DNA of 63,888 bases, filler included, from Aduncisulcus paluster (taxonomy: Eukaryota): assembly GCA_024181965.1 (NCBI GenBank). It is 31 parts of 31 records of this genome, joined end to end, with 100 filler letters (N's around TTAATTAATTAA, not from the genome) between each part and the next. Parts side by side here need not be neighbours in the genome. Positions count along the whole stretch, not along the records: positions 35,754 to 36,825 come from BQXS01007680.1; 30 more parts are not named here. The stretch is one strand, 5' to 3'. Shown in pieces: positions 28,783-63,888 of this stretch; position 1 is the stretch's first letter, and the number at the start of each line of letters is the position of its first letter. A program made the translations under genes and the position numbers. Under the pieces are notes generated by a model, which was given only the letters and a program-made list of their open reading frames with translations, had not been told where the DNA came from and ran no database searches.

Positions 28783-30394
28783 ATGTCAAAATTCCTTCAA
28801 AACATATTTATATTGTATTTTATTATTGTTTTATGTTTTTGTGGCTTTGTTGTCCCGATGGATGATGATTTCATTGAGAATTGTACAATTTGTGATATTT
28901 CGAAACCCTCTCAATTTAGAATTGAATCAGAAGATAAAATTCAAATTAGTTTAACCTTCGACACCAATGAAAGTCCATTTTCTGACATTGATTATAGTCT
29001 AAGCAATTTGTTTGAAATTGAGAATGGCTTTTGTCCTATTGAGCAAGATGGTCATTCTATCAATGATACTGGAGATATCATGCAATATAATGACATTAAT
29101 AGTGATGATTCCGATACAGAAATTGATTTTATAAATATTCTAACCACTTTCACCTTGCCATCAAAGTCCAAAATAATCTGGATATGTTTTCTTGGATTGG
29201 GGAACACAATATTATTGGGAATTTTGTCAATGATTTTTGCAACTTTAGAAGCAATTTTTAAATTTATGATTGAATTATATTGGATCTCTATATTTATCTA
29301 TTGTGGATTTGTATTGTATTGGTTCCCTTTCATCCTGTCCATTTCAGATCTATATCGGGGATGGATATGTTTTGGATGTTTGATATCTGGTCTTCTCTTC
29401 ATTATAGCATTATGTTTGCTCGTTTTCTCCATAACAGATTCTATACGCAGCTCTCATGACTTTCCTGATTTTCCTAATATTAAATTTGAAGTTGAAGCGA
29501 TTGAAGTGGCGATTTCTTTCATCATTTGTGGGATATCCATTGGGCATGGTGTGTTTTATCATCCTATTTTCTATTGCTTTCCAATATTATTGGTACTGGA
29601 TATGTTTTCTTGGATTGGGGAACACAATATTATTGGGAATTTTGTCAATGATTTTTGCAACTTTAGAAGCAATTTTTAAATTTATGATTGAATTATATTG
29701 GATCTCTATATTTATCTATTGTGGATTTGTATTGTATTGGTTCCCTTTCATCCTGTCCATTTCAGATCTATATCGGGGATGGATATGTTTTGGATGTTTG
29801 ATATCTGGTCTTCTCTTCATTATAGCATTATGTTTGCTCGTTTTCTCCATAACAGATTCTATACGCAGCTCTCATGACTTTCCTGATTTTCCTAATATTA
29901 AATTTGAAGTTGAAGCGATTGAAGTGGCGATTTCTTTCATCATTTGTGGGATATCCATTGGGCATGGTGTGTTTTATCATCCTATTTTCTATTGCTTTCC
30001 AATATTATTGGTATTCTTAAACATATTCTTTTCTATGGCTCCCTATTCGCTTACTTTCAGACATTCTGAGAACACCATTGTTGTCAAACGTATTACAAGA
30101 ACTCCAATTTTATTTTCCATCGCTATCGTGTTCCCTTGCATTGTATTGTCTTTGACTGGATATTCAACACTTTCACTCCCTGCTCTTGTGATCGCACCCA
30201 TCTTTGTGGCCTTCTCGTTGATCAACCTCATAGGAAGCTTTAAGAAGCTAAGGATGGTGATCGTTATAAATTTCGTGGTTCTTTTGATCTTCTCGTTGAT
30301 TGTATATCTTGTACAACATTTCGTTTCTTCAATGGTATTGCTATGTTTCATCTTAATAGAGTTAGGATTATTCATTTCTGTATTAGGTAAATGA
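28783..30394 (+). CDS. Eukaryotic multi-pass membrane protein, split by an exact 418-bp tandem duplication
   Basis: Signal peptide, acidic ectodomain and many TM helices. Collapsing 29178-29595/29596-30013 restores one ORF. Confidence 0.6.
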
Positions 30395-33361: not shown

Positions 33362-33624
33362 ACTTGAACTGGCGTTTTATCAGTAAAAACATGGCGTTCA
33401 GCATCACTCTTAGAAGAAATTATGGCCTTAGAATCATCTTTTTCCTTTGAAATTTCATTATCGGACAATAAATCAGACTTTTCCTTTTCATCAGATTCTT
33501 TGGCATTTTCACCATGACTGGCATCACTATCATGGCGTTCAGTTGGTAAATCACCAACAATTTCAAATTCTTCATCATTTTCACCTGTATTGGCGTTTTT
33601 CAATTGGCTTCTTGTTTGTACCAT
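33362..33624 (-). CDS. Gag-like ORF start of retrotransposon family E
   Basis: MVQTRSQ start about 65 bp after the LTR end; identical copy at 60905-61084. Confidence 0.5.
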
Positions 33625-33689
33625 TTTAACAGAAAAATTTTGGCGTCAATTATACAATAAACTTTAGTTTGATAGGATTTTGATCAAAA

Positions 33690-33842
33690 TGTGGCCAAAC
33701 TAACTATAATGCGGTCCAATTTATTAATAAACAGATCTCGAGCGAACCAATCTATTTTTAGAATGTCCCTGAGAATGGTCACCACAATAGTATAATACTA
33801 TCACCTAGTAGGAAATGAAGATAAAAATCATTATTGACCACA
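33690..33842 (-). mobile_element. 5' LTR, family E (153 bp; alternative start gives 97 bp, 33690-33786)
   Basis: Sense TGTGGTCAA...TTGGCCACA termini, ATTCTCA, CTAAAAATAG, AATAAATTGG; second copy at 60687-60839. Confidence 0.65.
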
Positions 33843-33874
33843 ATATGGAAGTCAAAGTCAAGGAACAAATTAAC

Positions 33875-33964
33875 TGTAAGCTAAGCCAAATTTATTTAAA
33901 TAAACGGTTCTATAAATAGGACATCCCTGAGAATGTCTGTAGATAAGGATCAATGTCCGTAACA
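33875..33964 (-). mobile_element. Solo LTR, family A (90 bp) with 5-bp TSD
   Basis: TGT..ACA termini, identical to 36392-36481, flanked by TTAAC at 33870-33874 and 33965-33969. Confidence 0.85.
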
Positions 33965-33999
33965 TTAACTAAAAAAATAATTTGAAGAATATCTTCCAT

Positions 34000-34491
34000 T
34001 TATTCGAGCTCTTCAAATTCCTCTTCTTCATCGAGATCAACAGCTACAGAAGAGGTTTGCATTGTGGCTGACAAATCTGAGCCTTGAGAGATAAGAGTTA
34101 AGCTGGCTCCTGGACAGATACTTTGTGTAAAATTCAAGTAGTTTATAATCTGGCCATTCTGAAATAATTGCACCAAATTTTCCATCGTTCCGAATCTCTT
34201 CAAGAATAATATCCTTTCTATCTGCTTCAGGTAGTCTTCTGTTGCTCTTGACAGTCTTTTTTTCGTACTCATAGTGACACAGTGCATCCAGCAATCTGAC
34301 AGCAATCTTCTTTGAAAGAAACTCAATGGCGGCAGAGTAAACCTTTGAAGTGTCTAAAAATGCTTCAATATTGGTTGAAGTGACTGAGGTTTCTCCAGAA
34401 ATAATCGGGGGGAGAGAAGAAGAGATCATCTCTTTAAGCTCTGAGTATCGACGTTTCGTGGCTTTTAAAACCAACTTAACGTTTCTATTGA
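34000..34491 (-). CDS. Hypothetical, possibly Gag-like ORF (differs by a 1-bp indel from the copy at 60080-60616)
   Basis: Near-identical to 60080-60616 with A7 versus A6 near 34257-34263; LPP..EAFL..KVY weakly resembles the Gag-like motif. Confidence 0.4.
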
Positions 34492-34591
34492 NNNNNNNNN
34501 NNNNNNNNNNNNNNNNNNNNNNNNNNNNNNNNNNNTTAATTAATTAANNNNNNNNNNNNNNNNNNNNNNNNNNNNNNNNNNNNNNNNNNNN

Positions 34592-35653
34592 GCTTCAACT
34601 GTGGACTCCTTTGAAGGTCTTCAACATGCTGTGAACCTCACATCTTTATCCATCTCTGGCACTTCATCTAGTTCTGTGTCCATTGGGAATACTGATCTCG
34701 CATACCTTCCTTTGTCATTAACTGATTTAACTCTTGAGGCTGTCTATCTTGATGCTGATAGTGATTTGTCATCATTTACAGCTCTCACGACACTCTCTTT
34801 GAATGACAACACAGATTATGATATCACTGAGTCTGGTCTTTTCCCATCGCCATCATCTCTCACTTCTTTCAGTGCCAACAACACTTCAATCTCTTTGTTG
34901 TTCCATCTTGTTGCTAGCATGCCCAATCTGACCGATCTTTCTCTGAACAACAATAATATCTCTGATCCTTCCCCATTGTATGCTTTGTCCAGCAGTGGTT
35001 CTTGGAGTAGCCTTGACTTGTCATATAATCATATCTGTGGTGATAATGGTGATACTGCGATTGAAACTTTCCTTGCATCTAAGTTTTCTCTTTCTACTGC
35101 AGATGTGAATGCTAGTGGTCAAGCCTGTATATGTTCCTCTGATGACCTTGGATCGACCCCCCTCGATGTCAACAAGGTCTGTGCTGAGACCAAACCTGGG
35201 TCTAACACATGGTATGTTGTATGTGCCAGTGATTCATACACGTCATACACCGATGCATCAACATTTGCATGCATTTCCCCAGATAATGGTGATGGTACAT
35301 TTGGATGTTCTGGCGGGTGTGAGTATGGGCAAGAGTGCAGATATGACTCAACCTCAACTTCAACATCGTGTCAGCAAGTGATCGTCGATGAGAACTTGCA
35401 TGCCTGTGTTGCTGACATGTTTGTGGATTCTGTTGGCGATCCTGCTTATACACATCGAACAGATTCCACGCCTTCCCTTTTCAGCGTGGCTTCTCTAAAA
35501 ACTCTGGTTTCTGTGGCTATTAACAATCAATATTATCCTCAGATTCAATATAATGATTCATCTCTTCCTATCGATGATTTATCAGGTATTGAGCACCTTG
35601 GTGGGATTAAATTGATTGGTTTCTCCAGTGTTTTTTCTGGTTCTGGCGTATAT
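34592..35653 (+). CDS. Eukaryotic LRR/Cys-rich surface protein (fragment), paralogue of 3126-4871
   Basis: LTDLSLNNNNISDPSPL..LDLSYNHICG shared with the first LRR protein. Confidence 0.75.
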
Positions 35654-35753
35654 NNNNNNNNNNNNNNNNNNNNNNNNNNNNNNNNNNNNNNNNNNNNTTA
35701 ATTAATTAANNNNNNNNNNNNNNNNNNNNNNNNNNNNNNNNNNNNNNNNNNNN

Positions 35754-36180
35754 TTGAATCCAGAAAATCGATCCCCCTTTTAATGTCAATGTATGTGAAA
35801 TGACATTCCTCGAGTCCAAGCCATATAACTTTCTTTTCATGGTCCTTCCTGTTATAAATTGTTACCCCTCTCGTATCCACGATACAGATTGTAACTTTAG
35901 CACACTCCGCTAGCACCAGTATATCATTTGAATCGGCAAAATAATTGGATCCAAGTGCGTCGGTCATATTCCGCTGACCATTCAGATAGGTCATCGTTTT
36001 CACCATAATACCAAGTTTGCGTGCTAGTCCTTTGTGTATTTTACCATTTATATGGCACGTAAATGAAAAATAGAGACATAGACAATCTGTGCCTGGAACA
36101 ACGATATATGCAGGATCAACGTCAAATACACGTTTAAAAGATGCAATAAGTGCTCGACTTGGGCCTAGGTGTATATCCAT
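35754..36180 (-). CDS. OTU-like cysteine protease domain protein (tentative)
   Basis: VPGTDCLCLYFS (Cys loop), FADSNDILVLAECAKVTICIV (variable loop), IWLGLEECHF (His loop). Confidence 0.45.
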
Positions 36181-36391
36181 TGTAATATTTTGCAGGAAAA
36201 ATTCAACATGGTTCCTTACTACTCGGATACCAAAGAATTAACAAGAATGGATTATAATAACAAAGACCCCGGGGGTTCAACGTAATATATTTATTTGGTA
36301 AATGAATAGATTCTATGCAGATCGGACCTGAGTTGAAAGCAATCGTTGACAGTTCAAAGAGAGAGAATAAATGAAGAATTTATTATTCTGT

Positions 36392-36481
36392 TGTAAGCTA
36401 AGCCAAATTTATTTAAATAAACGGTTCTATAAATAGGACATCCCTGAGAATGTCTGTAGATAAGGATCAATGTCCGTAACA
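36392..36481 (-). mobile_element. 3' LTR, family A (90 bp) with polypurine tract
   Basis: Identical to 33875-33964; sense-strand AAGGAAGAAGGAGTAG (36482-36497) immediately precedes TGTTACGG. Confidence 0.85.
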
Positions 36482-36523
36482 CTACTCCTTCTTCCTTGCA
36501 GCTGTGCTGTGAAATTATAAAAT

Positions 36524-36597
36524 TAGACGGACAGGGATTCGAACCCCGATCCACTAGGCAGTACACCGGCGTACTACCAATTGAGCTATCCTATGCC
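36524..36597 (-). ncRNA. Degenerate tRNA-like Pol III unit inside element A
   Basis: A-box TAGCTCAATTGG, B-box GGTTCGAATCC in a CGGGG/CCCTG T-stem, TTTT after it; acceptor and anticodon stems poorly paired. Confidence 0.7.
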
Positions 36598-37216
36598 TTT
36601 TCTATATTTTTCTATATTTTATATAAGCCTTTTTGCTCCTCTTGACCTTCCTCCTTACGGCACATGTATACCTCATTTTTCTACTATGAATTTATAAATA
36701 TGTATGTTGGAATATATACCATCATAATTGTATGTTATTTATGTGGATAACGTCTTCTAACTTCTGTGAGATTATCTCTCTTGATAAGACGGGTATTAAA
36801 TTTTTAATTTAATATTTAGCATACANNNNNNNNNNNNNNNNNNNNNNNNNNNNNNNNNNNNNNNNNNNNTTAATTAATTAANNNNNNNNNNNNNNNNNNN
36901 NNNNNNNNNNNNNNNNNNNNNNNNNGTTGCACCACTTGTAGTTTGAACTGTAGCTGGCATTTGTACAATAATATTATTGTTAGCTGTTCTACAGAATTTA
37001 TGCTTGGAGCAAATTTACTATTTTGAAATAAAATATAAATTCCCAGTTTTTGGATTTGAAACCAAACCGGAACCAAAAAATAAAACATTCTTAATCCTTT
37101 AATATAATAAGATGATAACTTCAAAATAATAAATAATAATAATAGTTTCTGTCAATAATAAATAAACAACATTGTAATACCATCATACTAACAATATCAG
37201 ACATTTGCCAAACAAC

Positions 37217-38487: not shown

Positions 38488-41400
38488 ATGGATCCAAAAT
38501 CAAGCTCAGAACGTAGCCAAGATATTGTATGTTTCTGAAAGTTTTTGAATTTATACATTTTATGATGTTTTATATAATTAATTTGAAAAATAATGCCCAT
38601 ATTGCTTTCATAACCCATTTTCTGTTTCGGGTGTTTATTATTGCTTCATTTCCACCAAAATCTCAATTAATTTATTAGATTCAAGAAGTTAAATCAGAGT
38701 TTATTCATGAAGGTGACGAATCTAGCTCTCCAATTCCTCGGGATTCCCCGAATGTTAAGAGTCCTGATATAACTGTTATTGAAGCCAAGAATAGGACCAA
38801 GGAAGAAGGTGATAATGGGTATGATCAGTGTTCTGCAGCACAAAAGATGATGAAAGGAGAGCGTAATTGGGAAGAATTTGGAGAGGTGGCTTATTGGGAA
38901 AGATTTATACCACAATTTACAAATATTTCCCTTCCTTTCTCCACATCTACTCCCATTAAAGGTGCTTATATTTGTATTGGAGGAGGAAAATATTTCTGTC
39001 CACCCTCACACCTTATCTTCTCTCTTACATCTTCAAAGGGGGAGAAAATGTTTAAAAAATATGAATTTCCTGAATTAGAAAATGATAGCTGGTTCTTTCT
39101 CCCTATTGATCTTTCTGATGTTATTCTGTGTGAGATTAAAGGGAAAGGGAGAAAGAAAGAGTCTTTTAGAATCTACTCCCTTGTTTTCATAAGTAGAGAA
39201 GAAACTCCTGAAGAAATCAAAGCTTGTGAAGCTAGAGAGAAACTATGGTCTGAAGCTCCAGTTGTGAAACCAGAGTTTCTTATGGAAGGATGGAAAGATT
39301 CTATTCCCATTCCACATGATGATCCAAAGCTTGTATATCCTTCATTCTCAATGGCTAAGGGAAAGAATGATGTGTTTCGTAAGGAATTTGAGGAGTATGA
39401 TCAGAGTTCAAGAGCACAAAAAATGTTAAGAGGGGAATGTGATGTTCACTTATCCCATCTTTCCATTCCTTTCCCATCACCTTGTCCAATGAAAGGTGCT
39501 TATATATGTGTGAATAAGAATGCTAGTTCTCCCTCTCTTCTCTTCACTTTCACTGATTGTGATGGTAAGAAGATATTCAAGAAGTATGAATTCACAAGAC
39601 CTAAACATTACTATGAATGGCACTTCCTTCCCATTGATATGGATAATGTTGTATTGTGTGAGATTGAAGGGAAAGGAAGTTGGTGGTGGAAGAATAGTCG
39701 ATACTTTGTCATCCTCTCCCTCGTATTCTTTCGAGAAGAAACCCCTGAAGAACGTTGTATTCGAGAATCCATTGAGGAACAATGGTCTAAAGCTGTATGT
39801 TCATTATATTTTATTGGTTTAATATTTTCACATTTCTTTGTTTTATTATTTGATACGATTCACGCTAATCTTGTTTTACAATATTATCTCTTGATTTGTT
39901 TCTAATACCATTATATATCTCTTTTTTCAAAAATGATATATAGCCCACCATTGAATCAGAGTTTGTGAATTCTGGCGATCCATCTGCCATCCCCATTCCA
40001 CGTGGTAATGCAGCCGTTAATAATCCTTCTTTTGAGATGGTCAAGGGAAAGAATGATTCGAAGAGTAAGGAATCTGAGGAGTATGACCAAAGTGAAAAAG
40101 CTCAAGAAATGTTGAAAGGTGAAGGAGAAGTGACATTATCCCATCTTTCCATTCCTTTCCCATCACCTAGTCCTATGAAAGGTGCTTATATCTGTGTGAA
40201 TAAGAATACTAGTTCACCCTCTCTTCTCTTCACTTTCACTGATTGTGATGGTAAGAAGACATGCAAGAAGTATGAATTGACAAGACCTGAACATTACTAT
40301 GAATGGCACTTCCTTCCTATTGATTTGTATAATGTTGTATTGTGTGAGATTGAAGGGAAAGGAAGGCGGGATAATAAGAATAGTCGATGTTTTGCAATCA
40401 ATTCTTTAGTTTTTCTTAAACAACGTATTTTATTGGGAACTGTTGAATATATATATAAGGGAGACTATTCATGCATTCCAATCCCTCGAGATGATCCAAC
40501 ATTTATCAGTCCAGAATTTTTTGCAATTAAAGCAAGAATTAATGGAAGAATGGAAATAGAATATGAAAGTTTATATTATCAGAGCGATTGTGCACAAGCG
40601 ATGATGATGATGAAAGGAGAGGGTGTTATTTTAGGTAATTCTGAGTTTTATTTTATTTCCATTCCTTTCAAATCATCAACACCTATAAAATGTGCCTATG
40701 TCTGTTTATCATCTCGTAAATCTCCATCTCTTACATTCACATTCACTTCTTCAAATGGAAGCAAAATATCATATTTATATAAATTTGATGCTAAATCCAC
40801 AGATCGTTGGTTTAAGCTTTCAATTGGTCTCTCTGATGTTATTTCATGTGATATCAAAGGAGATGAAGAAGTAAGGGAATATTTTGAAATTATTTCCCTT
40901 GCTTTTTATCGAGAAGGAACTCCTGATGAAGAGATTGCTCGAGAAAAACAAAGAATATATCTTAAAGAACTATGGTTTAAATCCCCACCTGTGATACCAA
41001 TGTCTGTAACCCAAGAAATTGTAGATTCCCTTGATGATACCTCAATCTTAAATCCTTCATTTTCAGATGTTACATGTAAGAATGATGTATGTTGTAAGGA
41101 ATCTGAGCGGTATGATCAGAGTTTGGAAGCACAAAAAATGTTAAAGGGGGAAGGTGACATAGTTTTATCCCATATTTCTATCCCTTTTCCATCACTTAAT
41201 TCAATTAAAGGTGCATATATTTCTGTTTCTAAATATTATCTCCCTGCTCTTCTCTTCACTTTCACTCTTTCGAATGGAAAGAAGATATCCAAGAGGTATG
41301 AATTCACAGAACCTGAACATGATTATAGATCTTTCTTTCTTCCTATTGATCTTCCAAAGGTTGTTTTATGTGAGATTCAGGGAAAAGGATCATGGGAATA

Positions 41401-42517
41401 TGAGAAGAGTCGATTTTTTGCAATAATCTCCCTTATTTTTATTAAAGGTGAAGATATTCCTCCCCTTTCTTCAGATTCCACAAAGCTTATCAAACATGAC
41501 TCTTTCACTCTCACTTCCTCTGCAACCATGACTCCTCAGTGCATCATTGGTCATGGTGGATTTGGTGAAGTTCTTCTTGTTGAAGTCGATGGTATTCCTA
41601 TTCCTTGTGTTCTGAAGAAAATGCTCCATGAAGCTGATGAAAGGGTTGTTAAAGAATGTCGAAAGGAGTTCAAGATGCAACGAAAGTTATTTAACAACCC
41701 CAAATGTTTCAATCGTATCCCTCGTCCTTTGTACATTCTTGACCTGCTTGATGCAGATTTACAGGGAGTATATGGATTCCTTATGGAGTTTTGTATTGGA
41801 GGCAGTGTGAATTCCTTTGCCAAGAGATGGTGTGTTGTTGAGAAGTCTACGAGTCAAGGGGAAGAAGGAGAGGAAGAAGATCTATCCGATTCCTTTTCGT
41901 CTTCAGAAGAAGATAGTGACGATCACAAACAGTTTGATCCCATGACACTGAACCCTGTTAAAGTGAGTGCTCTCTGTGTTGGCATGATTGAGTGTCTTGA
42001 TGATGTGTTTAGAGCAAAGAAGAGTCTTGTCCATCGAGATGTTAAACCAGACAACTTCCTTGTTCGTGTTGATCATGATTCAAATAAATGTACTATTGTT
42101 CTCTCTGATCTTGGAATGGTCCAAGTCTTAAATTCTCTTTCATCACGACTATCTTCAAGTGGGGTAACCAAAGTGTCTTCTCACTCCTCAAAGATTGCTG
42201 AAAAGGGGGCAAAACCTGAACCTCAACGTTCCATCTGTGGAACACTTGTGTATAATTCGTATGAAGCTCTTCGAGGGTATCAGACTCAAAAGAGTGATGC
42301 TTACTCTCTTGGAATGTCTATTCTTGCTCTGTTCATGGCAGATAACCCTTTCATAAATCTGCCTGGTTTAAGAGGAATTTGCAATCGATCGGACTTTGTT
42401 CTAGAACTATGTCGAATTCTCAAAGGTGATATGGGTCCAACATTAAAAGAATCACATCTCTTCAAATCCTTATTGTCAATTGAAAAGGGTGAATTCCGAT
42501 CTGTTCATGCATGTTGA
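38488..42517 (+). CDS. Spliced eukaryotic Ser/Thr-type protein kinase with five tandem ~150-aa repeats, 3' end truncated by an LTR
   Basis: Phase-0 GTATGT..AG introns at 38527-38678 and 39795-39943 join all exons in frame; repeats PIPRDxP..YDQS..SHLSIPF..KGAYIC..FLPIDL..CEI; kinase motifs GHGGFGEV, VLKK, HRDVKPDN, DLG, SDAYSLG. Confidence 0.85.
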
Positions 42518-47428: not shown

Positions 47429-48865
47429 TTATTCTTTCCAGATTTCCACCAATTGCCGAAGATTCTTATTATCTTTGTATAAACAATGCCGTTCCCTCTC
47501 CAAACTTGATATTTTCTTAGCAAAAACCTTACAATCAGATGTGACTTCTGTTATTTTCCCCTTTAATTCGAGTCTCTGGCGATCCCATTCTTTTTCAATT
47601 TGTTCAATATATGCGAGCTTATCTTTCAATCTTTTGCTCAAAATCTCAATTTGTTCACCTTTTTCAATAGATTTTGCCTCAATTTCTTTTTTTTCATCTC
47701 TAAATCTTTCCGTGGCCAAGTCAAGTTTATGTTTGAGTTCATCACATATTCGATCACACTTTCTTTTCTCTTCTCCTACACCTTCAAGGGATATTTTTAA
47801 TTTATGCTCCAATTCTTCTATATTTCTTTCACATTTTCTTTTTTCTCCTTCAACTTCTTGAAGAGATATCTTCAGTTTGTCAACCATATCTTCCAACTTG
47901 CCTCTTTGGGAAGCTCTCTGTTCCAATTCATATTTAATCTCTGTTTCTTTCCTTTCCAGTAATGTAAGCGTACGTTCTGCAGCCATGGCTCTATCCTCAG
48001 CTCGCTGAGTGGATCTTAGCTGCTCTTGAAGTTGATGGCGCATTTCTTGAGATTCTCTCTGAAGCGACGAAACTCTCCTTTCCAACTCTTCTTTTGTACT
48101 CACCGAATCACGTTGGAGAACAGATACTCGCCTGAATAAATCATCCCGCTCGTCAGATATCTTTGAAACACGGAGTCTCCATTCACGACGCTGCTCTTCT
48201 TTCTCAGCATCAAGAGCCTCAAGTTCCTGAATTTTAGCTGTTAATTCGCCATGTTCTTTCTGTTTAAATTTGAGTAATTCTTTATATTTTTCTTCGAGAG
48301 CAGAGAATTTTCCTTTAAGTAGATCCTTCTCCTGCGAGTGTGAAGAAAGGGAATCTTCAAGAGATCTTCCTAATTCTGCAATTTTAGTGGAAGATTCACC
48401 TTCTATTCGCTTCAAATTAGCTTCTAATTCAAAATTACGAGTTCGATAACTTTCAAGTTGAGTTTCAAGTTGATGGAGAATTTGGGCATTTTCAACTTTA
48501 ACTTCTGCAACAGCATCAGCTTTAGCCTTTTCAATATCTGTGGATGTTGATAATTTGTCAATTAGTTTTTCTATTTCCTCACTTCGCGATTGAAGTTGGG
48601 ATTGAAGAGATTTTCTTTCTTGAGCAAATAGTCTCTCTAACTCAGCGTTCGCAAGTTTTGCTGCCTCTAGATCAGAAGTTAATTCAATATTTTTTTGTCT
48701 AATAGCTAAAAATTGGGTTTTAAGGACAGAAAAATTTTGCTTCATTATTTCTTGCTCTTTCGTCATTTGTGCCAATAAATCATCTCTTTCTTCATAGTTA
48801 GGGTGAGCAATCCCTGAAATATCGAGAGTTTCCATCCGGATTTTTATCAAAAGAGAGAATTTCAT
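47429..48865 (-). CDS. Long coiled-coil protein (possibly centriolar, CEP83-like)
   Basis: 478-aa heptad-rich E/K/L ORF; family assignment is a weak impression only. Confidence 0.6.
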   Translation of the reverse strand: MKFSLLIKIRMETLDISGIAHPNYEERDDLLAQMTKEQEIMKQNFSVLKTQFLAIRQKNIELTSDLEAAKLANAELERLFAQERKSLQSQLQSRSEEIEKLIDKLSTSTDIEKAKADAVAEVKVENAQILHQLETQLESYRTRNFELEANLKRIEGESSTKIAELGRSLEDSLSSHSQEKDLLKGKFSALEEKYKELLKFKQKEHGELTAKIQELEALDAEKEEQRREWRLRVSKISDERDDLFRRVSVLQRDSVSTKEELERRVSSLQRESQEMRHQLQEQLRSTQRAEDRAMAAERTLTLLERKETEIKYELEQRASQRGKLEDMVDKLKISLQEVEGEKRKCERNIEELEHKLKISLEGVGEEKRKCDRICDELKHKLDLATERFRDEKKEIEAKSIEKGEQIEILSKRLKDKLAYIEQIEKEWDRQRLELKGKITEVTSDCKVFAKKISSLERERHCLYKDNKNLRQLVEIWKE

Positions 48866-49607
48866 TCGATGTCGGGAAATCTTTCGTCATATTCCATATT
48901 AGCAACCCAAATTGAAAAGATTCAACAAAAATAACTTTATTTAAAACATTCAATTAAATATAACTATTGTAGATTACATTATACAGCCTTTCCATTTTTN
49001 NNNNNNNNNNNNNNNNNNNTTTTTGTCTAATAGCTAAAAATTGGGTTTTAAGGACAGAAAAATTTTGCTTCATTATTTCTTGCTCTTTCGTCATTTGTGC
49101 CAATAAATCATCTCTTTCTTCATAGTTAGGGTGAGCAATCCCTGAAATATCGAGAGTTTCCATCCGGATTTTTATCAAAAGAGAGAATTTCATTCGATGT
49201 CGGGAAATCTTTCGTCATATTCCATATTAGCAACCCAAATTGAAAAGATTCAACAAAAATAACTTTATTTAAAACATTCAATTAAATATAACTATTGTAG
49301 ATTACATTATACAGCCTTTCCATTTTTCTCGGGCGAATAATCTCTAATATATAGATAATATATTTTAAACCATAATGTGTTATAAAAAAATTTAGAATTA
49401 AATTTCTTGTAATGTTGCTAGATTAGCTGATAATAGTCTTCGGTATCAATATTTGAGATGATAAGGTTGAAGAATATTAAATAGGTGAAATAGTAATACG
49501 AATACTAGTATATTTCGATTATCCCTGTTTTCGCAGACATTATCGTTTTCAACAGAGATAAACAGGTAATTTGCCTGTTTTCCTGACAAAAGTAATATAA
49601 ATCATTT

Positions 49608-54003: not shown

Positions 54004-56004
54004 TTAGAAATAAAGATCTCTGACCCCCTTAATTTTGATCATGTCAAGCTTCTTCATGAACGACTTTTTGCGAGATTCAGACGGGATATTCTCCATTTCC
54101 TTTCCAATCAGCTCCCATCCGATCTTCTGTGTTTCTGGGGAAGCATAATCAATGAGATACTCAGCCAACGTGAGCAAGGCATTTGGCTGGCAATAGTTCC
54201 CAATGGCCCCACTCTTAGCAAAGTTCATGAACACCTCTCCAGTCCTGCCACTTCTGTAGCATCCAGTGCAGAAGGAAGGAATGAACCCTTTCTTCATCAA
54301 GTCACGGACGACCTCATCAAGAGAACGGTGGTCAGAGAGCTCGAACTGTCCCTCGTCCTCTGTGGTCCCAACTTTTGTCTGCACCTCCTTCTCTTCCTCG
54401 CCCTTGCTGTAAGCACCAGGGTCAGTGCGGGAGGCAGCACTCAGCTGACTCACTCCAAGTTGAAGGAGTTCATCACGCATGGCTTCAGACTACACGGGTG
54501 GAGAGGATAATCCCCGTATATGGGAGAGACACACGCAGCACAGCAACGATCTTCTTGAACTGCTTGTCATTGACAGGGTAAGGCACAACATGGGACAATG
54601 GGGCATCCTTTGCAGGCTGGATACGAGGCACGGAGACAGTGTGAGGCCCTGTTCCCCAGTTCTTGTCCAGGTGAGCACCATGCATGATCATGGCAAGGGT
54701 GTCCCATTTGTAATCGTAGAGCCCATACAACACACCCAGACCCACATCGTCAATGCCTCCCTTGTTGGAACGATCCATGTTGGTGATACGGAAGTCGTAG
54801 TCAGCTTTAGGCCCTGACGAATGTACCTTGGCAAAGGTGGGACGATGGTATGACTCCTGGAAGAGAGCAACCGTTCCAATGCTATCGGTGGCCTTGAGAC
54901 GCTTCATATCACTCACGGAGAGAGTAGGAACCTCAACATTAATCCGACGGATCGAACTACCCTTCTCATCACGGACAGCATTGGTGGCAACCATTGCATC
55001 AACAAAGGAGTCGAAGGGATACTTGGGACTCTCACCACAAAGCATTAACGTACGTTTGTGACCTTGTTTCACAATAGCTCGGGCATCAGCAGCAACCTGA
55101 CTACTATCAAGAACAGTCCTTGGGGAATCTTTGTTGTGACAGCTGAATCCACAATATAAACAACCGTTAATGCACTCATTTGCAGTGTATAAAGGTGCAA
55201 ACATGACAACACGCTTTCCATAGATTTTCTCTTTGATGAATTTGGCAGTCTTGTAGAGTTCTTCCATCAATTCTGGATGTTCTTCTTCATCAATGTTCAA
55301 AAGAAGAGCCGTTTCCTCGATTGACAGACCTTGAATGAACTCAGATCCAAATTGACACCCTACAGGAATCTTGAATTGAGCAGCATCCTTGGCCTTCTTA
55401 AGAATACGTTTCACGGTATCTACATCGGTGGAAGCAAGCTCTGTACTAACGAGGGCCCTACTAATTCTCNNNNNNNNNNNNNNNNNNNNGGTGCAAACAT
55501 GACAACACGCTTTCCATAGATTTTCTCTTTGATGAATTTGGCAGTCTTGTAGAGTTCTTCCATCAATTCTGGATGTTCTTCTTCATCAATGTTCAAAAGA
55601 AGAGCCGTTTCCTCGATTGACAGACCTTGAATGAACTCAGATCCAAATTGACACCCTACAGGAATCTTGAATTGAGCAGCATCCTTGGCCTTCTTAAGAA
55701 TACGTTTCACGGTATCTACATCGGTGGAAGCAAGCTCTGTACTAACGAGGGCCCTACTAATTCTCTCTTCGTCAATAATATCCTTGGGATGAACGGTTTC
55801 TGGGTGAGGATCTTTTTCTATACTCCAGAAAGTTCCAGGATGTTTCCAAGCACGTTTCAATGGTCGTTTCATTCCCTCAATTGTAACTGGACCAGGAATA
55901 GTGATTCCTGTGGGAGTACTTTGAGAGAAAGAATGGGAAACTCCAGAAACAAGTGATTCTGGAATTATTTCTGATATAGAAGGTTTTAATATGGATGAAA
56001 GCAT
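54004..56004 (-). CDS. hydG: [FeFe]-hydrogenase maturase HydG with N-terminal extension (dup artefact at the N gap; 1-bp frameshift near 54492)
   Basis: VMFAPLY..CINGCLYC radical-SAM motif, FQESYH, GPHTVSVPRI, and C-terminal PSFCTGCYR-x20-C (CX2CX22C) diagnostic of HydG; ends GVRDLYF. Confidence 0.92.
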
Positions 56005-59858: not shown

Positions 59859-60079
59859 CTTCCCTTTTTCCTCCCTCCTTTTTCAGAAGTTTCCTTTGTT
59901 TCCAACATTTTCTAAAACGTTAAATATCTTGGGNNNNNNNNNNNNNNNNNNNNNNNNNNNNNNNNNNNNNNNNNNNNTTAATTAATTAANNNNNNNNNNN
60001 NNNNNNNNNNNNNNNNNNNNNNNNNNNNNNNNNAACATAAAGAATTTTATTATTATGTGATTTATGTTTTGCTTACAAA

Positions 60080-62265: not shown

Positions 62266-62341
62266 AAAATGGCGGAGGTGGGGTTCGAACCCACGTCTTC
62301 CACACCGCAGCATGAAGGACTAACGTCTCGGCCAAATATTG
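62266..62341 (-). ncRNA. Degenerate tRNA-like Pol III unit inside element B
   Basis: A-box-like TGGCCGAGACG, perfect T-arm GTGGG-TTCGAAC-CCCAC, 3' CTCCGCCA then TTTT; 5' acceptor strand does not pair. Confidence 0.7.
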
Positions 62342-62769: not shown

Positions 62770-63888
62770 CGGCGCCAGCCCCGACGTGATGACGTCGTCG
62801 GTGACGGCGCCGCTCGAGGTGCAGTTCGGCCAGATGCCGAATCTGAATCAGATGAGTTCGGTGAGTTCGGCCGGCTCGTCGGTCATCACGCTGCAATTCG
62901 GCCTGTCGATTTCGCTCGACGTCGCCGAGCAGGAGGTGCAGGCCGCGATCAATGCCGCGGGCAATCTCTTGCCGTCGGACCTGCCGGCACCGCCGATCTA
63001 CGCCAAGGTCAATCCGGCTGACGCGCCGATCCTCACCCTCGGCCTGACCTCGAAGACGATGCCGCTGACGCAGGTGCAGGATTTCGTCGACACAAGGCTG
63101 GCTCAGAAGATCTCGCAGCTGCCCGGCGTCGGCCTCGTCAGCATCAGCGGCGGCCAGCGGCCCGCGGTACGCATCCAGGCCGACATCCGCAAGCTCGCGG
63201 CCTATGGCCTCAACATCGACGACCTCCGCANNNNNNNNNNNNNNNNNNNNNNNNNNNNNNNNNNNNNNNNNNNNNNNNNNNNNNNNNNNNNNNNNNNNNN
63301 NNNNNNNNNNNCACCATCAATGCCAACGACCAGATCCGCAATGCCAGCGACTACCGCTCGCTGATCGTCGCCTACAAAAACGGTTCGCCGGTCCGCCTCA
63401 GCGACGTCGGCAACGTCGTCGACGGCGCGCAGAACGACAAGCTCGGCGCCTGGATGAACGAGACGCCGGCAATCATCCTCAATATCCAGCGCCAGCCCGG
63501 CGCCAACGTGATCTCGGTGGTGCAGGGCATCAAGGACCTGCTGCCGCAATTGCAGGCCACGCTGCCGGCGGCGATCGACCTGAACATCCTGACCGACCGG
63601 ACCGTCACGATCCGCGCCTCGGTCCGCGACGTCGAATACGAGCTGTCGCTCGCGGTAATCCTGGTCGTGCTTGTCATCTTCGTGTTCCTGCGCTCGACCC
63701 GCGCCACGCTGATCCCGAGCCTGTCGGTGCCGCTGTCGCTGGTCGGCACGCTTGGGGCGATGTATCTGTTCGGCTTCAGCCTGAACAATTTGTCGCTGAT
63801 GGCGCTGACCATCGCCACCGGCTTCGTGGTCGACGACGCCATCGTCGTGATCGAAAACATCTCGCGATACATCGAAGAGGGCGAGTCT
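62770..63888 (+). CDS. mdtB: RND multidrug efflux permease MdtB/MuxB (internal fragment)
   Basis: [54 protein letters not shown]. Confidence 0.88.

Follow-up and report, generated by a model that had tools for sequence, protein, structure and literature searches.

TRIM elements have LTRs of 100–250 bp, and Pol III type-2 units share an A-box/B-box consensus. LTR elements that carry Pol III units derived from small-RNA genes, namely Cassandra, Helenus and Ajax, form a recently defined class for which the route by which such units enter the LTR is unsettled. In the paper describing them (Kojima 2024, PMC10886601), Helenus (TRIMp3) is a short, non-autonomous LTR-type element with a 5-bp TSD, its LTR copies far outnumber its internal parts, and a non-working tRNA-derived sequence whose A and B boxes are conserved lies inside both LTRs, where it is the proposed promoter. 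Its hosts there are fungi, animals and plants, and the word 'protist' is absent from that paper (PMC10886601). Cassandra and Ajax, as described there, are LTR-type elements with a 5S-derived Pol III unit inside the LTRs whose promoter and terminator set the start and end of the transcript, and for TRIM families the ratio of LTRs to internal parts is given as about 4:1 to 7:1 (PMC10886601). Here we describe a locus in the fornicate metamonad Aduncisulcus paluster, a free-living relative of Giardia, at which a tRNA-derived unit precedes a candidate polypurine tract (PPT) and a short LTR-like repeat. We put a probability of about one half on the reading that the unit is a captured, 5'-truncated copy of a tRNA or pre-tRNA that rides as a passenger in a short-LTR retroelement, within its non-coding 3' end.

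The window, by which we mean the whole stretch of DNA analysed (63,888 bases), strings together 58 short unplaced contigs with N runs between them. Most of these N runs are a linker of 100 bases (N44-TTAATTAATTAA-N44), the others being shorter; features read across an N run have no real linkage. A. paluster strain NY0171 is a free-living fornicate cultured with food bacteria, and its draft genome comprises 29.4 Mb in 25,863 contigs from 69.9 Gbp of sequence, or ~2,400-fold (PMC9933649). Many contigs of the window (1–28025 and 62770–63888) are bacterial contaminants with a G+C of 26–32% or 60–69% and with genes for a TonB-dependent receptor, a methyl-accepting chemotaxis protein, AcrB, ArsR/TetR regulators, a sulfatase and others. 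The remaining contigs have a G+C of 33–44% and long ORFs, mostly without Pfam families; a HydG maturase (54488–55468) is 57% identical to HydG of Carpediemonas membranifera and 100% identical to EukProt Carplike_NY0171. Identical (100%) stretches of 276–300 bp occur at 29178–29895, 48692–49319 and 55194–55765. Two of these pairs (48692–48991 = 49020–49319 and 55194–55469 = 55490–55765) each flank a 20-N gap and look like overlapping contig ends left unmerged; both copies of the third (29178–29477 = 29596–29895) lie within one contig with no gap between them. On the plus strand of 38679–42514 there is a long ORF with ~686-bp tandem repeats (3–5 diverged copies) followed by a protein kinase domain. 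The tRNA-derived unit is on a contig of 1,072 bp (35754–36825), and the 90-bp repeat is the sole sequence that this contig has in common with the other 57.

Read on the minus strand, this contig has the arrangement given by the original prediction: an A box, a B box within a T arm, TTTT, about 20 bp of further sequence, a polypurine tract and an LTR (Table 1). The two boxes start 43 nt apart, which is the canonical spacing, and are followed by a T run, so that the sequence features of a Pol III type-2 unit are all present. An A box and a B box with a gap of 25–45 nt are found together at a single place in the window and never in 100 shuffles, which argues that the unit is tRNA-derived and not a product of chance. 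The B-box consensus alone (GGTTCGANNCC) has three matches in the window against 0.36 expected, two of them being both strands of one other site. The T arm of the unit is perfect (CGGGG/TTCGAAT/CCCTG).

Table 1. Features of the unit-bearing contig and of the second copy of the repeat, in window coordinates.
Feature	Position	Strand	Remark
Non-coding AT-rich sequence upstream of unit	36599..36825	minus	stops in all three minus-strand frames
tRNA-derived unit, 72 nt	36524..36595	minus	canonical tRNA length; not a functional tRNA
A box TAGCTCAATTGG	36588→36577	minus	sequence
B box GGTTCGAATCC	36545→36535	minus	sequence
TTTT	36522→36519	minus	starts 2 nt past unit
Spacer, 21 nt, from TTTT to polypurine run	36498..36518	minus	sequence
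Polypurine run AAGGAAGAAGGAG, 13 nt, candidate PPT	36485..36497	minus	TAG (3 nt) before TG of repeat
90-bp LTR-type repeat, 5' TGTTACGG...GCTTACA 3'	36392..36481	minus	without TSD
Second copy of repeat, 100% identical over 90 bp	33875..33964	minus	other contig
Orphan host ORF downstream of repeat	35755..36180 or 36237	minus	not a recognisable transposon gene

The unit is tRNA-derived but non-decoding. When the canonical cloverleaf is imposed on it, 3 of 7 acceptor pairs, 2 of 4 D pairs and 2 of 5 anticodon pairs form in addition to all five T pairs, at an energy of +1.2 kcal/mol versus −25.0 kcal/mol for the MFE fold, which consists of two hairpins, one with an 8-bp stem (GGUAGUAC/GUACUGCC). 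ARAGORN found no tRNA gene (0) in the unit, and no Rfam family matched at gathering thresholds; the Rfam tRNA model scored 15.3 bits against a gathering threshold of 29, with an E value of 2.9 in a 501-nt search, and over 34.5 kb the tRNA match of the unit was beyond E = 10. Canonical boxes on degenerate stems had been predicted, and these pair counts and subthreshold scores bear this out. The notion that this is a working tRNA gene, only oddly structured, draws on the canonical length, the presence of U33, the intact boxes and the terminator; it is effectively refuted by the pairing and energies just given, by ACT at the anticodon position and by the negative ARAGORN and Rfam results. The one model that ARAGORN returned at relaxed thresholds, Ser(act) with a 12-nt 'intron' at positions 32–33, is artificial, and we rejected it. 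A metagenome scan with the 22-nt T arm and acceptor strand of the unit gave one match, which is not a tRNA (ARAGORN 0) and was set aside as irrelevant. The bins over the unit (36510–36617) are uncovered in the public run X2, which is guessed to be RNA, and this has no bearing on expression.

Another tRNA-like 3' half lies at 62335→62270, likewise on the minus strand. Its T arm is perfect (GTGGG/TTCGAAC/CCCAC) and is followed by the acceptor strand CTCCGCC, an A and then TTTT, with no matching 5' acceptor strand; ARAGORN was negative on it, Rfam gave only a weak match to a tmRNA 3' end, and there is no 90-bp repeat near it.

The 90-bp repeat behaves as a short LTR. It has TG..CA ends, starting with TG at 36481, and its second copy has TTAAC on both sides (33870–33874 and 33965–33969), which makes that copy a solo LTR with a 5-bp TSD. 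The ends of the repeat are confirmed by run X1, in which contigs with differing continuations break exactly at 36392 and 36478/36481. At the copy beside the unit the flanks are TCTGT and CTACT, and on the unit side AAGGAAGAAGGAG supplies the polypurine tract that stands directly upstream of the 3' LTR in LTR elements. Purine runs of at least 13 nt number 47 on both strands of 34.5 kb, so the probability that one adjoins a repeat boundary by chance, on either side, is ~0.01. Because the run lies 3 nt from TG on the unit side, the minus strand is taken as sense and the repeat at 36392–36481 as the 3' LTR. We also considered the plus strand as sense, in which case the unit would be an antisense, over-long PBS left by read-through of a primer tRNA; this was rejected because the unit is 42 nt from the repeat, TGG (the CCA complement) is absent and the polypurine run would go unexplained.

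The two copies of the 90-bp repeat are the only pair of this family in the window, and a two-LTR 'Element A' read across them would span 33875–36481. They are in direct orientation and 2,517 bp apart in the window; they lie on different unplaced contigs linked by N runs, and 'Element A' is therefore an artefact of concatenation. Its palindromic PBS was probably the hairpin-prone stretch 36389→36362 (−3.3 kcal/mol), which becomes flank under the favoured orientation. None of the 118 window ORFs of at least 110 aa matched an RT, integrase, protease or gag family, and the element is possibly non-autonomous or has a partner elsewhere in the genome.

Several further observations concern the repeat. 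The contig at 60034–61084 is the same locus as 33362–34491 in opposite orientation, 100% identical except that it lacks 83 bp (33892–33974), and of the solo LTR it retains no more than the initial 17 nt. Either a deletion in an allele or a paralogue or a collapse during assembly would account for this. A supposed older repeat relic at 33720–33790 was rejected, with a local alignment score of 25 against a shuffle maximum of 29. The final 23 nt of the repeat had 0 matches in a metagenome scan, and the 30-nt flank that adjoins other repeat copies in X1 is absent from the window at up to 3 mismatches. TGG-containing motifs ~20 nt from the repeat in X1 flanks are maybe primer sites and maybe chance, and were given no weight.

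We used summed depths of Logan contigs from the public runs X1 and X2 as a guide to which sequences travel together, bearing in mind that summed contig depth is not copy number and that X1 is only guessed to be DNA, from its uniform low depths and with the ~2,400-fold sequencing of the published draft in view. Five apparently single-copy contigs have depths of 2,103–2,359 in X1, and the 90-bp repeat bins sum to 224–268 thousand. The three bins over the unit (36510–36617) sum to 39.9–41.6 thousand, and the 28 nt on the side of the unit that faces the repeat (36482–36509) come by arithmetic to about 39–52 thousand. Upstream of the unit, the contigs over 36599–36710 and over 36759–36825, the latter with 161 nt beyond the contig end, stand at 17.2 and 17.5 thousand, ~7.5x the depth of the apparently single-copy contigs, which points to about 7–8 copies with the same upstream sequence; for the stretch that holds the unit, the summed depth is put at about 8-fold that of apparently single-copy stretches. 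No loose ends are listed in X1 at the unit borders or at 36482. At a variant cut-off of 10% of depth, no variants are listed across 36482–36617 in X1, and with no variation among copies, constraint on the boxes is not measurable.

Several lines of evidence suggest that the unit probably belongs to the element rather than to host flank, namely the absent TSD, the purine run and the X1 depths. The copy of the repeat at 36392–36481 is devoid of a TSD though identical to the TSD-flanked copy, so one of its sides should be element interior; this argument falls if the 1,072-bp contig is a chimera formed at the 90-bp repeat, as it could be. The contrary reading, which we consider unlikely, is that an element with 90-bp LTRs landed a few dozen bases past a tRNA pseudogene belonging to another repeat and that the polypurine run is coincidental. 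Such a landing may have a parallel in known LTR elements that insert downstream of tRNA genes, since Skipper-2 of dictyostelids is placed 7–136 bp downstream of them (PMC5006619) and the repeat here begins 42 nt past the unit, a comparison that counts against our preferred reading. The TTTT directly past the unit is as in genomic Pol III genes, and the tRNA-like half at 62335→62270, with no LTR nearby, indicates that tRNA relics occur outside the element. Set against this are the missing TSD at a copy 100% identical to the other, the ~0.01 probability of purine-run adjacency by chance, the equal X1 depth of spacer and unit with no loose end from an empty site at 36482, and the one other complete repeat copy in the window, which has no tRNA-like sequence near it. 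We thus favour placement of the unit within the element, and the sequence at 36599–36825 is then probably element interior, which runs for at least 344 bp in the window to the contig end plus 161 nt in the X1 contig.

Just upstream of the unit, where a contig breaks off at 36598/36599, the summed depth in X1 drops from ~40 to ~22 thousand; this step (36599–36630) also bears on the extent of the LTR, being near the 2:1 of LTR to interior. It would fit a subfamily with a longer LTR of ~240 bp (~36628→36392) that holds the unit near its 5' end in the manner of Helenus and Cassandra. Pol III would then start at the unit of the 5' LTR, read through its weak T4 and stop at the T4 of the 3' LTR, the unit serving as promoter plus R region, and the longer LTR would have originated by a shift of plus-strand priming to an upstream purine-rich stretch. 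Such a second stretch exists just upstream (AAGGAGGAAGG, 36656→36646, purine-rich on to about 36629), and Cassandra draws on its 5S unit for promoter and terminator in the same manner (PMC10886601). We nevertheless regard this longer LTR as improbable. Taken alone, the 90-bp repeat already runs from TG to CA, is flanked by a TSD in its solo copy and has sharp limits in X1. There is no TG after the upstream purine stretch, which would leave the longer repeat with two unlike ends, and T4 directly past the promoter would need read-through.

On the other side of the repeat, the ORF has no Pfam family and three hits among 1.84 billion representative proteins. One protein (P0001, 185 aa) is 100% identical to it and begins at an internal Met, another (P0002, 242 aa) has 38% identity, and the two have a C-terminal Cys/His motif in common. 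In X1 the ORF is represented by two variants of near-equal depth with 11 differences per 197 nt. Between the LTR and the ORF is a second short repeat (36204–36302), whose X1 bins sum to 42–50 thousand; most of its copies in X1 differ at 36248 and 36269, and other copies run into oligo-A past the minus-strand end (loose end 36204). Within it, on the minus strand, is TGGTATCCGAGTAG, which we take to resemble a primer-binding site.

The most reasonable explanation for the unit, in our view, is capture of a truncated tRNA precursor. Acceptor pairs 5–7 are intact while the outer four (1–4) are all broken, and the Rfam tRNA alignment begins at model position 5, a pattern that argues for 5' truncation and not for random decay. 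CCA is absent and the T run comes 2 nt past the discriminator base, which fits a copy of a primary transcript or a gene and not of a mature tRNA. The source would have been the product of a host tRNA gene, with the first four acceptor-stem bases missing from the copy, and its template was probably a Pol III transcript not yet processed, with the oligo-U trailer in place; the TTTT after the unit may be a fossil of that trailer, or may be terminator-like. Pre-tRNAs are packaged in retroviral particles, according to PMC4378196. A template switch in minus-strand synthesis could have inserted the pre-tRNA copy in sense orientation, whereupon the unit would have become fixed in the non-coding 3' end of the retroelement, upstream of the PPT, and would since have been copied along with it. 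The RNA of the unit would fold as two hairpins and not as a cloverleaf. Because the boxes are intact at canonical spacing, it is still conceivable that each copy binds TFIIIC/Pol III, giving an RNA of ~75–80 nt. We read this capacity, from the sequence, as a leftover in a passenger that the element would not need; a unit at the 3' end, facing the 3' LTR and with TTTT directly after it, cannot promote the genomic RNA.

Some points count against a captured passenger. One copy of the unit and one junction are readable, and a full element with two LTRs, a PBS and a TSD is not seen; damage to the D stem and anticodon stem is not explained by truncation; and the depth drop upstream of the unit fits a longer LTR as well.

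The original prediction also assigned the unit a selected role. It might, for instance, supply or process the primer that the element could not take from a host tRNA, or serve as a putative insulator. Complementarity between the unit and the 92 nt that follow the repeat extends over at most 6 nt, a length that 204 of 300 shuffles reach, and no site in the window besides its own antisense is complementary to the 3' end of the unit plus CCA. Self-priming by the unit was therefore rejected, and so with it was the supply of a primer. Recognition by RNase P/Z, likewise proposed, is disfavoured, as the outer four acceptor pairs are all broken; cleavage of this kind, if any, would sever the PPT and 3' LTR from the genomic RNA. 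A 3'-end module of the mascRNA type was rejected as well, since the match to RF01684 is confined to the T arm (15.6 bits against a gathering threshold of 42.5) and the outer acceptor pairs are broken.

There remains a broader version in which the unit is a selected cis-element, either at the DNA level, as a TFIIIC/Pol III boundary or a safe landing pad for new copies, or at the RNA level, as a tRNA mimic near the 3' end of the genomic RNA, to which tRNA-binding factors would be drawn to aid packaging or reverse transcription. Three stems are broken where boxes and T arm are intact, the unit belongs to a PPT-adjoining block common to more copies than the sequence further upstream, and the MFE lies below that of most shuffles (z-score −2.1, with 5 of 200 shuffles as good), so that the 8-bp hairpin could hint at a selected RNA shape. 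We judge this version, at either level, a long shot. It was through its boxes that the unit came to be recognised, and this ascertainment weakens the argument from their intactness to selection; the copies offer no variation from which constraint could be measured, and there is no complementarity to any candidate primer site. On the whole it is doubtful that the module is a working retroelement part in this metamonad, whether it would serve an extended LTR as Pol III promoter, terminator and R region or act as a portable TFIIIC site.

What the locus would mean depends on which of these readings holds. If the unit is only a passenger, as we think most likely, it belongs to the ordinary natural history of transposons. 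A unit just outside the LTR, at the polypurine tract, would also be a natural intermediate for entry into the LTR, and such an element would extend the class of Cassandra, Helenus and Ajax to Metamonada. Were the longer LTR real, fungi, animals and plants would no longer be the only known hosts of TRIMp3-type elements, and this first case beyond them would have been met while a shift of the priming site draws an internal unit into the LTR; were the unit a portable TFIIIC site, the element would carry its own boundary or landing pad. In practical terms, such units give rise to false or pseudo tRNA calls and help to fragment the assembly of this small, repeat-broken genome.

Comparison with known systems places the locus near several of them. 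A tRNA-derived SINE likewise is multi-copy and has a tRNA-like head with A and B boxes; it was rejected here because TTTT comes directly past the head and no A-rich or LINE-like tail precedes the 90-bp repeat, and the about 7–8 copies with common upstream sequence are unlike dispersed SINE copies. Skipper-2 (PMC5006619) is similar in that a Pol III unit is followed, after a few dozen bases, by the boundary of an LTR. Skipper-2 and other tRNA-gene targeters insert beside working host tRNA genes, with TSDs (PMC5006619), whereas the A. paluster unit is a non-working tRNA with no TSD at its repeat and is apparently co-amplified with that repeat. With TRIM/SMART elements (PMC3281118) the locus has in common very short terminal repeats, a non-coding visible interior and a 5-bp TSD; the interior here is longer than in the smallest TRIMs, and the full structure is not seen. 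In the literature we found no such element with its tRNA-like sequence outside the LTR, which is weak evidence for its absence in print.

The likeness to Cassandra and Ajax is that of an LTR-type element with a unit derived from a Pol III gene, complete with promoter and terminator; from its position the A. paluster unit cannot set transcript ends as in Cassandra unless the LTR is longer than it appears. With Helenus the locus shares the short LTR-type repeat, the 5-bp TSD, the non-working tRNA-derived sequence with its boxes and the excess of LTR copies over internal parts. It differs in that the unit occurs once, upstream of the polypurine run and followed by TTTT, and in that repeat (36392–36481) and unit (36524–36595) are separate where Helenus has its unit inside the LTRs; the host is moreover a fornicate metamonad. 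The closest class is TRIMp3 (Helenus/Cassandra), and we do not file the element as a member of Helenus. Since the unit is most likely a hitchhiker, the locus looks like a variation on these known elements and not like a new mechanism.
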